From an uncultured Dehalococcoidales bacterium (GTDB lineage Bacteria > Chloroflexota > Dehalococcoidia > GIF9 > AB-539-J10): a stretch of 46,575 bases of DNA. The stretch covers positions 1-46,575 of the forward strand of contig CAYVCJ010000001.1 of NCBI GenBank assembly GCA_964450165.1, read 5' to 3'. The translations under genes were made by a program, and so were the position numbers. Position 1 is the first letter of the stretch, and every line of letters starts with the position of its first letter. Of this stretch, positions 10,293 through 18,118 are shown piece by piece. The notes beneath the pieces are model-generated. The model was not told the origin of the DNA. It saw only the letters and a list, made by a program, of their open reading frames with translations, and searched no databases.

Positions 10293-11034
10293 TATCTGCT
10301 AACGAAGGAAACAAACGAGCTGCCTTGTCTAAAGCTCCCAGAATACCATAGCAGATTGGCTTCGGAAGCTTGGAAAGAATGCTGCCCCACCAGGGCATAC
10401 CCCATAACAGAGATATTCCTTTGATGCTCTTTATTTGAAAGTTGGCCTTCACCAAATTGTAGAGTGATTGATAATCGAACTTATATGTATGGTCAACAGG
10501 TAAAACCCAGGGAGTTATTTGCTCTTCAGCTTTCGCCCCAAAAACCACTTTTAACCTGGTAACCTTTTTCCCTATACGAAAACCAAGACTCTCGAAATTG
10601 GCTATGGCAATTATCATCTCCCCTTCGGGCTTAAGCACTCTGGAAATTTCTTCCATGGTTTTACTTGGTGACATGAAGTGGTCCAGTGCTCCTTTGCACA
10701 TAACTTTATCGAAGAAGCATGACTTGAATGGTAGAGTCTCTCCCATACCCTGCAATAAAGCTACTGTCGTGTCAGCTTGAGCAAGGTGCTCCTTAGCTCG
10801 ACCTAGCATTACTCTAGAAGGCTCAAGACCGATAGCTATAGCCCCATTGTTCGCTAACTCAGCGGCATCAACAGCTCTACCACATCCTACATCTAATATA
10901 TATTCACCTTCTTTAGCAGCTACGTCTTGAATGATCAGGCGGGGTGTTTGTCGAAATAAGAACTCTAGGTCGGGATGTATTATCGGCGGCACTACATGGT
11001 CATCATCCCATTTCAAATCTAATTTTTCTTCCAT
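10252..11034 (-). CDS. Class I SAM-dependent methyltransferase
   Basis: [16 protein letters not shown] (motif I), LEPS, and [10 protein letters not shown]. Its 3' end overlaps the convergent methyltransferase by 41 nt. Confidence 0.75.
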
Positions 11035-11094
11035 GCTTCCGTTGCATCAATATTACCTCATCCACTACACTATATTCTACCCCTTGGCTTGTTA

Positions 11095-11123
11095 TTGCGT
11101 TGCCTGATGTTCCATGTCATAAT
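11095..11123 (+). promoter_or_regulatory. Candidate recA promoter giving a near-leaderless transcript
   Basis: TTGCGT (11095-11100), 17-nt spacer, CATAAT (11118-11123), then only 9 nt (ACCGCTGAA, no SD) before ATG 11133. Confidence 0.35.
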
Positions 11124-11132
11124 ACCGCTGAA

Positions 11133-12137
11133 ATGTCGACAGAGCGGGAAAAGACCATAGAATTAGCCATCGAGCAAATTGAAAGGCAATTCGGCAAGGG
11201 CTCGATTATGAAATTAGGCAAAGCTTCTGCTGGAGTACCTGTGGAAACTATCTCAACTGGTGCGATAGCTCTCGATTTGGCCCTAGGTGTTGGCGGCATA
11301 CCTAAAGGACGTGTTGTTGAAATCTTTGGTTCCGAAGGCTCAGGTAAAACCACTCTTGCCCAACATATAATTGCCGAAGCTCAAAAGGCTGGTGGCACTG
11401 CTGCGTATGTAGATGCTGAGCACGCACTTGACCCTACATATGCTAACAATTGTGGCGTACAGCTTGATGACTTGCTTATCTCCCAACCTGATACCGGCGA
11501 GGAAGCCCTGGAAATCACTGAGACTCTGGTAAGAAGTGGCGCCATAGATGTAATAGTTATTGATAGCGTAGCCGCATTGGTGCCTAGAGCAGAGATAGAA
11601 GGTGAGATGGGCGATGCCCATGTTGGCTTGCAAGCCCGCTTGATGTCTCAAGCGCTAAGGAAATTAGTCGCTGCTATCAGTAAATCGAAAACAGCAGTGG
11701 TATTTATCAATCAATTACGTGAAAAAGTAGGCATCATCTTTGGCAACCCAGAGATAACACCAGGGGGAAGAGCACTGAAATTCTATAGCTCAGTAAGGAT
11801 AGACTTAAGGAGAGGCGATGCCATTAAGCAAGGCACAGAGATAATTGGCACACGTGTCAGAGCTAGAGTGGTTAAGAACAAGGTATCTCCCCCATTTCGT
11901 AACACCGAATTCGATATAATGTTCAACCATGGGATAAGCAAGGAGGGAGGGTTACTCGACATTGGAGTAGCCACAGGCATAATAAAGAAACTTGGTGCGT
12001 TCTTCAATTATGGCGACACAAAATTGGGACAAGGAAGGGAGAATGCTAAGGACTACTTGACCCAACATCCTGAGGTCGCTTCACAACTGGAACGTGAGAT
12101 TAGAGCTGCAAATGCCTCTTTAGATACTTCCACTTAA
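11133..12137 (+). CDS. recA: Recombinase RecA
   Basis: [26 protein letters not shown], Walker [10 protein letters not shown], and [10 protein letters not shown]. The ORF-track start at 10944 is an unlikely upstream extension. Confidence 0.95.
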
Positions 12138-14124: not shown

Positions 14125-14154
14125 TTGACACTATGTAGCCATGAAGGATATATT
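14125..14154 (+). promoter_or_regulatory. Candidate promoter for tRNA-Ile
   Basis: TTGACA (14125-14130), 18-nt spacer, TATATT (14149-14154), 11 nt before the mature tRNA 5' end. Confidence 0.4.
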
Positions 14155-14165
14155 TATTCAATAAA

Positions 14166-14239
14166 GGGCCATTAGCTCAGTTGGTTAGAGCACGGTCCTG
14201 ATAAGACCGGGGTCTGTGGTTCGAATCCACAATGGCCCA
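14166..14239 (+). tRNA. tRNA-Ile (anticodon GAT)
   Basis: Cloverleaf folded by hand: acceptor GGGCCAT/ATGGCCC, D stem GCTC/GAGC, anticodon stem CGGTC/GACCG with loop CTGATAA, T stem TGTGG/CCACA with loop TTCGAAT. No encoded CCA. Confidence 0.9.
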
Positions 14240-14328
14240 CTATAGGTGTAGAATGCCAATATGCATTAACCCCAGAGCGGCAAAAGAATTATAATCCGGG
14301 GTGAGATTCCCCAAGATTATGAAAGCAT

Positions 14329-16248
14329 ATGGAACCTAATATTGAGACACTTGAGCAAGCAGTAAGTCGAGCTGGCAAGCTTAGCCAGGAAGCAAGGAGA
14401 GCTGCAGAACAATCTGCAAGAGCTTCCCAAGATGCCATAAGCAGAGCTGAGGAAATTAGCCAGGCAGCCATACAGGCTGTTAAGGAAGCAAAGAGAGCCT
14501 CTCGCGACGCTATAAGCAAAGTTGAAAAAATTAGTCAGGCAACTATGGAGGCTGCCCAAGAATCAATAAAGGCAGCCCAAGAAGCAATAAGCAAAGCCCA
14601 GGCATCAGCGAAGACACTTGAAGAAACAGCAAGCAGGATTGAAACATCAGCCCAATCAGCCAAGGATGATACCGAAGCATTGCTAAAGGCATCCCAAGAA
14701 AGAATAAGCAGTGCTGAAGAAATAAGCCGTGCAGCCATCGAAGTTGCTAACAAAGCAGAGGAGGCATCTCGAGAAGCAATAGGTAGGACTGAGGAAGTAA
14801 GTCGTGCAGCAATAGAGGTTGCTGAAAAAGCGAAAAAGACATCACAGAAAGCGGCAACCAAAGCTGAAAAGATAAGTCAAGAAGCCAGAGAGGCTGCTGA
14901 AATACCAATAAAAGCATCGCAAGAAACAATAAGCAAGGCCGAGGCATCAATTAGGCTAGCCACGGAGGCTACGGAGGCGTCGCGAAGGACATTTGAAGAG
15001 GCAATAAGCAGAGCTGACGAAGTAAGTAAAACAGCTATGGAGGCTACACAAGCAGCATCGAGGGTGTTTCAAGAGGCCATGGGCAGAGCTGATAAGATAA
15101 GCAAAACAGCCATGGAGACTACCACGGCGACAGCAAGAGCATCGCAAAAAGCAATCGGTAAAGCTGAAGAAATAAGCCAGGTAGCTTGGGGAGCGGCTGA
15201 AGAGGCAAAAAGGGTGTCTCACGAAACGATGACTAGAGCTGAGAAGATAAGCCAATCAGCCCAGGAAGCGGCTCAAGAGGCAAAGAAACTGTCTCAGGAA
15301 GCAACAAGCAAAGCTGAAGAAATAAGCCAGGTAGCTTGGGGAGCGGCTGAAGAGGCAAAAAGGGTGTCTTACGAAGCGATGACTAGAGCCGAGAAGATGA
15401 GCCAAGGAGCCAAGGAAGCGGCTGAGGAGGCAAAGAAACTGTCTCAGGAAGCAACGAGCAAAGCTGAGAAGATAAGCCAGGCAGCCAAGCAAGCTGCTGA
15501 AGAAGCGAAAAGAGCATCTCAGGAAACAGAAGGTAAGGCTGAACAATTAATCAAATCAGTTATAGAGACTGTCGAAACGGCGGCAAAAACGTCCCGAGAA
15601 GCGATGCGAAGGGCTGAGGAAGCTGCCGAGGAAGCTAAGGGGGTCGCTAGGCAAGTAATAAACGAGGCTGAACAAATAAGCCGAGGCATCCTGGAGGACA
15701 CTGAAGAAGCAAAGAAAGCTTCTCAAAAGGCAATAAGCAAAGTTGACGAAGCAGGCCAAATGGCTAAGGAGACCGCTGAAGAAACGAAAAGAGCATCCCA
15801 GGCCGCTATAAATAAAGGTGAAGAAATAGCTGAAGCGGCTAGCAAAACCATTAGAAAATCTACTGAAGAAGCCAGCAAAGCTGTTATTGCCTCAATAAAG
15901 ACATTCGAAGAGGTAGTTAATAGAGCTGTGGAAACAAGTAAATCAGCCAGGAGGGCTGCAATAGCATCAGTACAAATATTTGAGGAGCTGATAGGCGAGG
16001 CCGGAAAAGAAAGCCAACAAGCTAAGGAAGTTACTGAGGAGCCAGCAAAGGTGTTTGAGGAAGCAATAAGTAAAGATGAAATCAGCGAGGAAGAAGAAGA
16101 GAAGAAGCCAGTAGAGCCCAGCAAGGAAATCGAGGCACGTTTGAACCTGCTCGCCAAAATGTATGCTGCCAATAAAGATAAATATGTTGAAGAAGTTGAA
16201 CAGATTGGGCTGGCAGCAGACGAAGAAGAAGATGTGGAGCAAGACTAA
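14329..16248 (+). CDS. Long alpha-helical tandem-repeat protein (about 20 x 25-residue units), function unknown
   Basis: 639-aa ORF. Almost only A/E/K/S/Q/I/T/R, with no signal peptide or TM segment. Unit consensus is roughly EAISKAEEISQAAxEAAEEAKRASQ. Acidic non-repeat C-terminal tail. Confidence 0.8.
   Translation: MEPNIETLEQAVSRAGKLSQEARRAAEQSARASQDAISRAEEISQAAIQAVKEAKRASRDAISKVEKISQATMEAAQESIKAAQEAISKAQASAKTLEETASRIETSAQSAKDDTEALLKASQERISSAEEISRAAIEVANKAEEASREAIGRTEEVSRAAIEVAEKAKKTSQKAATKAEKISQEAREAAEIPIKASQETISKAEASIRLATEATEASRRTFEEAISRADEVSKTAMEATQAASRVFQEAMGRADKISKTAMETTTATARASQKAIGKAEEISQVAWGAAEEAKRVSHETMTRAEKISQSAQEAAQEAKKLSQEATSKAEEISQVAWGAAEEAKRVSYEAMTRAEKMSQGAKEAAEEAKKLSQEATSKAEKISQAAKQAAEEAKRASQETEGKAEQLIKSVIETVETAAKTSREAMRRAEEAAEEAKGVARQVINEAEQISRGILEDTEEAKKASQKAISKVDEAGQMAKETAEETKRASQAAINKGEEIAEAASKTIRKSTEEASKAVIASIKTFEEVVNRAVETSKSARRAAIASVQIFEELIGEAGKESQQAKEVTEEPAKVFEEAISKDEISEEEEEKKPVEPSKEIEARLNLLAKMYAANKDKYVEEVEQIGLAADEEEDVEQD
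14698..15597 (+). repeat. Twelve consecutive in-register 75-nt (25-codon) coding repeats
   Basis: Residues 124-423 of the 639-aa ORF tile exactly into 25-mers (ERISSAEEISRAAIEVANKAEEASR ... ETEGKAEQLIKSVIETVETAAKTSR). Confidence 0.8.
15160..15459 (+). repeat. Near-identical 150-nt tandem duplication (2 copies, third copy begins at 15460)
   Basis: AAAGCTGAAGAAATAAGCCAGGTAGCTTGGGGAGCGGCTGAAGAGGCAAAAAGGGTGTCT occurs at 15160 and again at 15310. The rest of each unit differs at only a few positions. Confidence 0.85.
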
Positions 16249-16379
16249 GCAAAAGCGAGGCTATACAGACAATTGAAGCGGACTTGTTTGTGTTCAGGAC
16301 TTGTATCCTTGGGTAAACCTGCGTAAACGGCGAGTAAATGTATTAAGAGGAAAGATGTAATAGGAAAAGGAGGTATATT

Positions 16380-16877
16380 ATGTTGAGTCAGGAAGAGCAA
16401 TTTCCCGATACTGATATAGACGAAGGAAAAACTGAACAGCAAGTGAAGAAAGTTTCTAAGAAACCCAAGCAAGCCATAGAATCCCTTACTGAAATTCAGC
16501 AACGAGCAATGATGGCTTACGCGGCCTACATGGATGCTGAACGTCAGGTACAAGAGGCGTATAAGCAACAAGAACGACAGATAGAAAAGGTCTATGAAGG
16601 AGCTAAGCAACAAGCTGCGCAGGCTTGTGAGGAAAATATAGCACAGGCATTGAAAACGCGTGAAGCGACTAAGCAACAAGCTGCAAAGTCTTATGAAGAA
16701 ACTATAGCACAGGCATTGAAAGCTCACGAAGAGGCAGAGCAGCAAGCCAGCAGAATCTCTGAGGAAAACATAGCTCAAGCGTTAAAAATCCGTGAGGAGG
16801 CAGAACAACAAGCCTGGAAATCTCGAAATGAAGGTATAGAGCGTACATGGCAAATCTTTACTAAGAGCAAAGGCTAG
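16380..16877 (+). CDS. Small helical repeat protein (3-4 x 22-residue units), function unknown
   Basis: 165 aa. Strong SD AAGGAGG lies 7 nt before the ATG. Repeats are KQQAAQACEENIAQALKTREAT / KQQAAKSYEETIAQALKAHEEAE / QQASRISEENIAQALKIREEAE. Confidence 0.75.
   Translation: MLSQEEQFPDTDIDEGKTEQQVKKVSKKPKQAIESLTEIQQRAMMAYAAYMDAERQVQEAYKQQERQIEKVYEGAKQQAAQACEENIAQALKTREATKQQAAKSYEETIAQALKAHEEAEQQASRISEENIAQALKIREEAEQQAWKSRNEGIERTWQIFTKSKG
16605..16850 (+). repeat. 66/69-nt coding tandem repeats
   Basis: Unit starts at 16605, 16671, 16740 and 16806. The core ATAGCACAGGCATTGAAA is repeated. Confidence 0.7.
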
Positions 16878-16945: not shown

Positions 16946-18118
16946 TTACAACAGCACAGGAATATCACTGAAGATTTCTTCAACTTCTCTATTAGCATAC
17001 TGTAATCCCTGTCTCGCTTTCATAGCCGTGATCAAGTCAATTGCTTTGGTGAAGTAGTTTGTCACCTTTCCTAGAGCGTCAAAATCAGACAGAACTACAG
17101 AAACATCTACTGCCCTTTTTTGCCTAGGATAATCCCCACTTCGTATCAAGGCATTCGGGGCTACCGCCCTCAAATTGTCTCCAAGCTCTTTCATTACGTC
17201 CATATTCATCTCTCCAGCTGGTGCGGAGAGAAGGTAAAGAGCTCTCCTCGCACTTCTAGGGTCACATGTGAGCGACAGTTCACTTAGAGCCCTATCCATT
17301 GCATGGACTCCCTTGTTGGTTTCAGTCATCTTGTCCTTGAAGTGAGCTTTGTCCTTGAGCGGCAATTTCCTCCGCCGAATTAGCGATTTACCTACCCCAA
17401 TTGCTGTCCACCCTGCAAGAGTCTGTATTATATCTCCAGCGTCGAGCACCTTTGATCCAATATACTTTGGCTTCGTCTCCTCACCAGCACAAAGTAGATT
17501 GTAAAATGGCTCAACTATCCGGGCATTAATCCTCGCCAGGTTTTCTGAAATTGAGGAATCCTTCCTGATATACCTCTGGTTATCAACAAGAATTATGGCG
17601 TCAGCTATTAAATATACCGATTTAAGGCAAATAGCAGTATTGTAAATCGTTCTTGCTTCGGATGTTTCTTCCTGTCGAAAAGGGAGAACAATTATATTAT
17701 AAATTGGTTTTCCTACATAGCGCTCTTTTAGGAACCGCGTTAATACCCCTATTGCTCCAGAGCCAGTGCCCCCGGCAGCACCGGCAATCAATAGAAAAGC
17801 ATCAGTTTCAGGAAACCGTTCCGCTGCCCTTACAGCATCTATGATCTTGTCGCCGTCTTCCCTCGCTATTTCAGCGCCAAGTTCACTTATCTTACCTACT
17901 CCATGCCCACCAGTCTTTTGCCCTCCCACAACAATCCTGTGTTTGTAGTCAGCTTTGATGTTGGATAGTCCACTTAAATCAGCAATGTCTGTATTAATAG
18001 CGAAGATATCAGCAATTACGTCAAGTTTGCGTACAACTTGGGCTCTCTTGTTAAGCCAGGCAAACCTATCAGCAATTCTGCCACCACATTGCCCCAGACC
18101 CATAACTAGTAGCTTCAT
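16946..18118 (-). CDS. Tubulin/FtsZ-superfamily GTPase, CetZ/tubulin-like rather than canonical FtsZ
   Basis: 390 aa. GLGQCGG (res 7-13), INTD (41-44), GGHGVG (70-75), GAAGGTGSG (113-121; nt 17756-17773 encode GGTGSG), VDNQRY (178-183), LDAGDIIQTLAG (225-236), GDYP (328-331). C-terminus is EEIFSDIPVLL. Confidence 0.8.
   Translation of the reverse strand: MKLLVMGLGQCGGRIADRFAWLNKRAQVVRKLDVIADIFAINTDIADLSGLSNIKADYKHRIVVGGQKTGGHGVGKISELGAEIAREDGDKIIDAVRAAERFPETDAFLLIAGAAGGTGSGAIGVLTRFLKERYVGKPIYNIIVLPFRQEETSEARTIYNTAICLKSVYLIADAIILVDNQRYIRKDSSISENLARINARIVEPFYNLLCAGEETKPKYIGSKVLDAGDIIQTLAGWTAIGVGKSLIRRRKLPLKDKAHFKDKMTETNKGVHAMDRALSELSLTCDPRSARRALYLLSAPAGEMNMDVMKELGDNLRAVAPNALIRSGDYPRQKRAVDVSVVLSDFDALGKVTNYFTKAIDLITAMKARQGLQYANREVEEIFSDIPVLL

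Follow-up and report, generated by a model that had tools for sequence, protein, structure and literature searches.

A 25-residue helical-repeat protein family genetically linked to CetZ-like tubulin homologues in Dehalococcoidia

We analysed a stretch of 46,575 nucleotides (nt) from an uncultured Dehalococcoidales bacterium (GenBank assembly GCA_964450165.1, contig CAYVCJ010000001.1, positions 1 to 46,575 of the forward strand), hereafter called the window. It contains gene B (14329..16248, + strand), an ATG-started open reading frame (ORF) for a 25-residue-repeat protein of 639 amino acids (aa) and 69 kDa with an isoelectric point of 5.0. Gene s (16380..16877, +) follows on the same strand and encodes a second, much shorter repeat protein of 165 aa. 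Gene Z (16946..18118, - strand) is convergent with s and encodes a 390-aa CetZ-like GTPase of the tubulin superfamily. On the basis of its repeat architecture and its genetic linkage to Z, we consider it somewhat probable that B works with s as an auxiliary structural component of a bacterial CetZ-like cytoskeleton, in which its part would be that of a spacer, cross-linker or scaffold.

Protein B is rich in Ala (21%), Glu (18%), Lys (10%) and Ser (10%) and holds 15 Gly and 5 Pro over its whole length. Residue identity at a lag of 25 was 0.355, against 0.115 ± 0.012 in shuffled sequences (n = 1000; z ~20), and further signals appeared at lags of 50, 75, 100 and 125. The repeat rod (14389..15837, +; residues 21-503) comprises 18 clear 25-mers and partial units of 14 and 18 residues. 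A 25-mer hidden Markov model (HMM) placed unit starts at residues 21, 46 and 71, followed by a 14-residue insert, then exact-register starts at 110, 135 and onwards to 410 (13 units), then an 18-residue unit, and lastly starts at 428, 453 and 478. The 13 exact units make up an in-register block (14656..15630, +; residues 110-434 in the HMM frame), within which lies a recently duplicated 50-residue (150-nt) double unit (15160-15527, +). Tandem Repeats Finder reported 75-nt and 150-nt periods at 14687-14831 and 15160-15527, with diverged copies (72-87% DNA match). The Kyte-Doolittle Fourier spectrum has a single dominant peak at 3.57 residues (25/7), with a power of 869 against 37 ± 12 for shuffles (~70 standard deviations). 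Since the power for the whole rod is higher than that of the in-register block alone, the phase is coherent through both discontinuities. Each unit consists of two heptads plus one hendecad (7+7+11).

The initial annotation, made from the sequence alone, had described much of this correctly. The ORF of 639 aa at 14329-16248 (+) with its ATG start was confirmed, as were the 25/7 periodicity and the long amphipathic helix of 7+7+11 units, and its count of about 20 units is fair. Its frame is the HMM frame shifted by 14 and gives three units from residue 35 and then 12 at residues 124-423; after this shift the HMM reproduced the 12 units that had been said to run in perfect register. The repeats had also been called exact, which is true of unit length and not of sequence, as mean unit-to-unit identity is ~40%. 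The statement that they contain no Pro or Gly has to be corrected, since 11 Gly (residues 152, 252, 277, 288, 338, 360, 402, 438, 453, 476 and 497) and one Pro (Pro193) fall inside the repeat region. A transmembrane segment and a signal peptide had been judged absent, in agreement with a maximum 19-residue hydropathy window of 0.49 and with the acidic N-terminus, respectively. The acidic C-terminal tail (16189..16245, +) was also found as described, the last 59 residues of B having 21 Asp+Glu against 8 Lys+Arg.

The consensus derived from 897 distinct family units is A-A-K-E-A-A-E-E-S-x-R-A-S-Q-E-A-I-S-R-A-E-E-I-S-Q. On a 25/7 helical wheel, positions 12, 5, 23, 16, 9, 2, 20, 13, 6, 24 and 17 form one continuous face of ~145 degrees. 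This apolar face is composed of Ala, Ser and Gly, with Ile/Val solely at positions 23 and 17 and an occasional Phe at 13; it is bordered by Lys/Arg at positions 19 and 3, and the back of the helix is rich in Glu. Large hydrophobic residues account for 15% of the rod (~2 per 25). Polar unit positions 11, 14, 15, 19 and 21 are conserved to the same degree as the positions of the seam. Unit identity across species (0.37) is about the same as within a single protein (0.40), which indicates that the consensus is selected, beyond what homogenisation by recent duplication would produce. Candidates for the oligomeric form of B, judged from its sequence, are a two-stranded coiled coil, a four-helix assembly and a salt-bridge-stabilised single helix lying on a partner. 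With regard to a canonical two-stranded coiled coil, the seam is mainly Ala/Ser, with Ile/Val confined to positions 17 and 23, and both flanks are basic. A single alpha-helix domain of the ER/K type was rejected: opposite-charge pairs spaced i to i+4 are enriched (66 vs ~29 expected), but charged residues account for just 35% and the 3.57-residue apolar seam is strong.

Both ends of B are conserved. The N-terminal head (14329..14388, +; residues 1-20) was recognised in the aligned N-termini of 62 relatives and contains the family motif F-E-x-A-V-A-R-A-E-x-L-S. At the other end the repeats pass into a degenerate rod end (15838..16068, +; residues 504-580), which is helical with a Fourier period of ~3.58 and includes conserved Phe-containing segments (..F-E-E-A-I..) in the family alignment. 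A flexible, acidic, Pro-containing linker of variable length among relatives comes next (16069..16119, +; residues 581-597), and then a tethered conserved helix, SKEIEARLNLLAKMYAANKDKYV (16120..16188, +; residues 598-620), which precedes the acidic tail. Invariant-column analysis showed the R, L, L, M and Y of this helix to be invariant or nearly so, and the pattern R-[LM]-x-x-L-x-x-M-[YF] was present in all 69 B relatives checked from the loci reached through Z.

Structure prediction with AlphaFold2 for full-length B as a single sequence gave helices at residues 5-190, 198-454, 459-580 and 599-627, interrupted at Pro193 (which is not conserved in relatives), at residues 455-458 and at the linker, in a model of low overall confidence (predicted local distance difference test (pLDDT) 60; predicted template modelling score 0.28). 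A second model, of the last 140 residues with a small alignment, consists of the rod end, with a helix of pLDDT 84-94 across roughly residues 500-550, a disordered linker and a confident short motif helix (block pLDDT 88). The linker is non-helical, with pLDDT <50, in both models. Altogether the sequence architecture and the helical propensity of B are established.

Upstream of B, 34 nt 5' of the start codon, lies a promoter-like site (14266..14295, +; TTAACC, 18-nt spacer, TATAAT), a predicted element that was recognised by consensus match only (10/12 positions). A tRNA-Ile(GAT) gene (14166-14240, +) is located just 5' of B and has its own promoter-like site (14125-14154). Between 14000 and 17000 the + strand of the window has a strong purine skew, with an AT skew of 0.33-0.48 and a GC skew of up to 0.23. 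It results from the use of Ala, Glu, Lys, Gln and Ser codons in B and s and gives rise to lengthy spurious ORFs on the complementary strand (e.g. 15723-16172 and 16245-16778).

Database searches agreed with the earlier view that B belongs to no named family. There was no match above threshold in Pfam or NCBIfam, and PDB searches with the sequence or the family profile returned solely designed helical proteins, which are compositional matches. A word-indexed homologue search with full-length B gave nothing, which is not evidence of absence since low-complexity words probably saturate the candidates; the same kind of search with the C-terminal 130 aa gave two 96-aa fragments only. Exhaustive phmmer against 1.84 billion representative proteins yielded 37 hits, mostly fragments of 64-400 aa, together with unrelated 25-residue repeat proteins (e.g. 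P0123), and told us little about distribution. For B orthologues, s orthologues and the Z of the window, no record was found by exact-sequence look-up.

Relatives of B were instead reached via the neighbouring Z gene, by collecting contigs with Z homologues and running local phmmer on them. Across these Z-anchored loci a B homologue was found in 71 (window included), with E-values down to 2.4e-283, and an s homologue in 74. Full-length family members are from Dehalococcoidia and measure 502-911 aa with 10-30 units each. Adjacent units are spaced by exactly 25 residues in 68% of cases; the other common spacings (11, 14, 18, 22, 36, 47 and 50) are almost all sums of 7 and 11, as a continuous helical seam demands. 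All members share the head, the tethered C-terminal helix in the form R-L-x-[FLS]-L-x-x-M-[YF] and, after it, the acidic tail. The closest orthologue, from an independent metagenome-assembled genome (L043), is collinear, 633 aa long and 87% identical, and differs from the B of the window by one 7-residue and one 1-residue indel.

Units of this kind also occur in other protein contexts. P0130 is an 876-aa histidine kinase with ~380 residues of ASQEAIxRAEE 25-mers between PAS and HisKA, in P0144 25-mers come after a PAS domain, and in P0141 an s-like N-terminus is fused to B-like units. These architectures suggest that the 25-mer rod is a reusable module. The helix that joins PAS to HisKA, made of these 25-mers in P0130, is normally a parallel dimeric coiled coil, a point to be set against the seam and flanks of B, which are atypical for a classic dimer.

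The partner protein s consists of 22-residue (2 x 11) tandem repeats, with a Fourier peak at 3.67 residues. A strong Shine-Dalgarno sequence (GGAGG) precedes its gene. The extreme C-terminus of s, ...E-R-T-W-x-[IV]-[FY]-T-K-x-R-[RK], is kept in 72 of the 74 homologues and, judging by this conservation, could be a membrane-targeting or docking peptide. Z matched Pfam Tubulin (PF00091; 108.5 bits, E = 6.8e-31) and CetZ_C (PF21011; 63.8 bits, E = 1.8e-17), both above cut-off. The top solved structures were Haloferax CetZ 4b46 (E = 3.6e-38) and 4b45, with 3zid also found, and the FtsZ equivalog model scored 54 bits against a cut-off of 295. By its sequence, with a GTPase domain and a CetZ-type C-terminus, Z can be placed in the CetZ family, nearer to CetZ than to FtsZ. 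It ends in an invariant F..DIP.LL, which resembles the C-terminal docking peptide of FtsZ. Homologues of Z number more than 5000; wherever a source is named, it is Dehalococcoidia or Chloroflexota. Among 185,579 species genomes scanned, 359 had a Z relative; of the 80 loci listed from these, all but one (L083, Deltaproteobacteria) are titled Dehalococcoidia or Chloroflexota. CetZ is commonly described as archaea-specific.

Linkage of the three genes was examined in both directions. The window has the order B (+), s (+), Z (-), which is that of the Z-s-B module, and 70 of the 85 Z-anchored loci have Z first, then s and B transcribed in the opposite direction. The genes around the trio vary, with 24 upstream and 23 downstream unrelated families. 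For the reverse test, metagenomes were scanned with the C-terminal region of B and 80 loci were kept; in 45/45 of the B-anchored loci that continue for 2 kb or more downstream of the B stop codon, s and Z are present in the canonical order, the rest being truncated contigs. The B family and its reciprocal, near-obligate gene linkage to s and Z are thereby established. In Dehalococcoidaceae a second Z paralogue lies beyond B (eno, gap, Z, s, B, Z, dnaX), as in L053 (2734-8179) and 14 loci like it. Elsewhere Z genes occur in tandem, or a single Z stands beside dnaX without s or B. In L042 (5020-8145, -) the gene after s is not B; its product of 1041 aa is a secreted or anchored protein that has a hydrophobic segment at the N-terminal end and a transmembrane segment at the C-terminal end. 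This may be a replacement or a rearrangement.

Published work on Dehalococcoides offers some leads. Cells of this genus are disc-shaped, and in disc-shaped pure-culture cells of D. mccartyi BTF08 the tubulin-like btf_0551 and the nearby hypothetical protein btf_0548 were abundant; in the barrel-shaped cells of a BTF08 co-culture btf_0548 was not quantifiable, and for btf_0551 the abundance was lower or no value was obtained (PMC8163811). Strain 195 has an operon of the hypothetical genes DET0588 and DET0587 that adjoins the 'FtsZ' gene DET0589, and transcripts of DET0586-0588 track solvent inhibition (PMC5102406, PMC4340931). DET0587/DET0588 and btf_0548-0550 are candidate counterparts of s and B, to be taken as leads only. 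CetZ-like genes in Chloroflexota-Dehalococcoidia have already been published, and their neighbours were not discussed (PMC9871819). For other archaeal tubulin-like genes the searched literature offers just a general remark on neighbouring coiled-coil genes. In the literature searched we found nothing usable on a described 25/7 repeat family, no description of the partners s and B and no direct structural partner of any CetZ. A coiled-coil accessory of a tubulin-family polymer is a known kind of system; of the B family, its 25/7 architecture and its constant association with a bacterial CetZ-like gene we found no account in the literature or the profile libraries searched.

If B is an accessory of a CetZ-like cytoskeleton, it would be a cytoplasmic, nearly all-alpha-helical rod of ~72 nm over the repeats, or ~85 nm with all predicted helix included. 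At 3.57 residues per turn the stripe of small and apolar residues would drift little, which would make the rod nearly straight, and intrahelical i-to-i+4 ladders of Glu and Lys/Arg would make it stiffer. The conserved head would sit at one end and the acidic linker, the short helix R-L-x-F-L-A-K-M-Y and the acidic tail at the other, while gain or loss of 7-, 11- and 25-residue blocks could adjust rod length. B would be co-transcribed with s; together with the adjacent Z the two constitute a three-gene module conserved across Dehalococcoidia, in which B and s may position or stabilise CetZ-like polymers beneath the cell membrane. By analogy with archaeal CetZ, the Z system may control cell shape. 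B, s and Z each end in a conserved short motif, and such terminal motifs are typical of peptide docking in FtsZ-type networks, the C-terminal peptide of FtsZ being the example. We infer from sequence and gene order that B forms rods and oligomerises, that the terminal motifs serve docking and that the system has a role in cell shape; every functional step has this same basis.

Several observations weigh against such a role. The AlphaFold2 model of full-length B has low confidence. With ~2 large hydrophobic residues in each 25, an Ala/Ser seam would hold a classical two-stranded coiled coil together only weakly, and basic residues on both flanks (positions 3 and 19) disfavour the e/g pairing of a simple homodimer. 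Some loci of CetZ-like paralogues lack s and B in their vicinity (e.g. L064 and L079 beside dnaX), which implies that Z is able to exist without the adjacent pair. The link of DET0586-0588 to solvent inhibition would fit a stress role too, if these genes are homologous. The subunit repeat of tubulin/FtsZ protofilaments is ~40-44 Å and the rise of one 25-residue unit, at ~1.5 Å per residue, is ~37 Å; we therefore rejected the idea of a ruler with one unit per subunit.

A more specific version of the proposal, to which we give a rather small chance, is that Z, s and B make up a three-part bacterial 'tubulin plus microtubule-associated protein' cytoskeleton. B rods would then lie along or between CetZ-like protofilaments by way of their periodically conserved polar surface and set filament spacing or length. 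Through the terminal motifs of s and B the assembly would attach to the Z tail, the membrane or both, and the flattened disc shape of wall-less Dehalococcoidia would be the outcome. Dehalococcoides reportedly lacks a peptidoglycan wall. A B rod lying on protofilaments in this manner can be likened to tropomyosin, GvpC and the fibrous microtubule inner proteins. Tropomyosin on actin and GvpC on GvpA are, like B, long helices of quasi-equivalent repeats with conserved exposed positions, and in the B unit such positions suggest a periodic binding surface. B has no homology to either, and the mismatch between ~37 Å and 40-44 Å makes a one-to-one register unlikely.

Other tubulin-superfamily systems offer partial parallels to Z, s and B. 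ZapA, ZapB, EzrA and SepF are small or long helical proteins whose action on a tubulin-superfamily polymer with a conserved C-terminal docking peptide is one of bundling, tethering or regulation, much as proposed here for B and s; they are not homologous to B, their partner is FtsZ and not a CetZ-like protein, and the 25-mer rod has no counterpart among them. The CetZ1/CetZ2 system of Haloferax volcanii resembles the window in that Z is CetZ-like by its CetZ_C and PDB matches. CetZ1 of H. volcanii is reported to govern the change from disc to rod shape. Published archaeal cetZ neighbourhoods contain type IV pili, cofactor-biosynthesis and sugar-epimerase genes and, unlike Z-s-B, no repeat rods (PMC9856176).

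Four other explanations of B were weighed against its role as a CetZ-like accessory. The one to which we give a minor but appreciable chance is that B is a self-assembling, intermediate-filament-like protein of the crescentin, FilP and Scy type, which builds its own filaments or lattice and is merely co-inherited or co-regulated with Z, with no direct binding between the two. That class is defined by architecture and not by sequence homology, and B has this architecture: a very long helical rod with heptad and hendecad periodicity, out of pure heptad register, between a head and a tail that are both conserved and could serve end-to-end assembly, with a variable length (502-911 aa) as in coiled-coil-rich proteins. 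Scy itself has a 51-residue unit (51/14 = 3.64). B differs from crescentin, FilP and Scy in its 25-residue unit (25/7 = 3.57), its Ala/Ser seam and its conserved polar positions, and no sequence relationship to them was detected in Pfam, PDB or NCBIfam. An Ala/Ser-rich seam would also be weak for stable self-association. B is tied genetically to a tubulin-superfamily gene, as these three proteins are not known to be, and the near-obligate linkage to Z and s (45/45 through B, 70/85 through Z) is stronger than independent systems predict. Improbable, in our judgement, is an amphipathic helix that coats membranes or other surfaces or protects against stress (solvent stress, for instance), as in class-A apolipoproteins, phasins and group-3 late embryogenesis abundant (LEA) proteins. 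These proteins share with B amphipathic repeats with basic residues at the border of the apolar face and acidic ones opposite, B having a class-A-like wheel with Lys/Arg borders and Glu on the back, and the DET0586-0588 response to solvents would point the same way if these genes are homologous. The families concerned, however, have periods of 11 or 22 with a peak at 3.67, whereas B has a period of 25 and a peak at 3.57, and its apolar face is rich in Ala/Ser with few large hydrophobic residues. Phasin_2 (PF09361) matched B weakly (17.8 bits, E = 0.004, residues 477-564 only), below its cut-off of 24.9, and just 3 of 17 relatives showed a weak match; apolipoprotein A1/A4/E and LEA_4 had no Pfam match to B at E ≤ 1. 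Nor would a coating helix explain the linkage to a tubulin homologue. Among the three architectures offered by the initial annotation, the two-way gene linkage to Z and s strongly favours the cytoskeletal one, and the phasin-like and apolipoprotein- or LEA-like options were not borne out.

The two remaining explanations fare worse. An antiparallel hairpin that dimerises into a four-helix bundle, as in the cytoplasmic domain of chemoreceptors, and serves as a signalling or array scaffold is quite improbable. The top Foldseek match of the B model was the Thermotoga chemoreceptor hairpin 2ch7 (E = 4.9e-4), and the wide small-residue face of ~145 degrees would let each helix touch two neighbours. 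The match nevertheless stems from a low-confidence model whose predicted turn, at Pro193, is missing in relatives, and for these reasons the hairpin was discounted; single indels of 7, 11 or 25 residues between close relatives would moreover shift its arms out of register. A methyl-accepting chemotaxis signalling domain was likewise rejected, since MCPsignal was absent from the Pfam scan of B and the case consists of the Foldseek likeness with its unconserved turn. There is a practically negligible probability that the B ORF arose by misassembly or is an unexpressed frame in repetitive, purine-rich DNA. Such an artefact could account for the empty word-indexed search with full B and for the relatives in the 1.84-billion library, where the predominance of 64-400-aa fragments suggests that assemblies break in the gene. 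Dozens of independent assemblies nevertheless carry full-length collinear orthologues in which head, unit consensus and tail are conserved, and the repeat copies in the window have diverged (72-87% at the DNA level) and are not identical. The promoter-like site 5' of B and the strong Shine-Dalgarno sequence before s also speak for genuine genes. The artefact that had been named as a possible refutation of the ORF is further contradicted by the collinear L043 orthologue and by more than 100 other independent contigs with the same architecture.

Elsewhere in the window, the recA ORF (10944-12137, +), read from a GTG at 10944, is over-extended and runs across a methyltransferase gene encoded by the other strand; an ATG at 11127 lies near the start of the RecA domain.

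The linkage described here means that a bacterial CetZ-like gene is locked, class-wide, to two uncharacterised repeat proteins, and this includes the bioremediation organism Dehalococcoides. The very regular natural 25/7 helix or coiled-coil repeat of B is relevant to the structural rules of coiled coils and to protein design. Z-s-B offers a concrete three-protein system for asking how a tubulin homologue shapes a wall-less prokaryote. If the more specific proposal of rods along CetZ-like protofilaments is true, no prokaryotic tubulin homologue would have been assigned a dedicated repeat-ruler partner before, and bacteria would possess an equivalent of the archaeal CetZ shape system.

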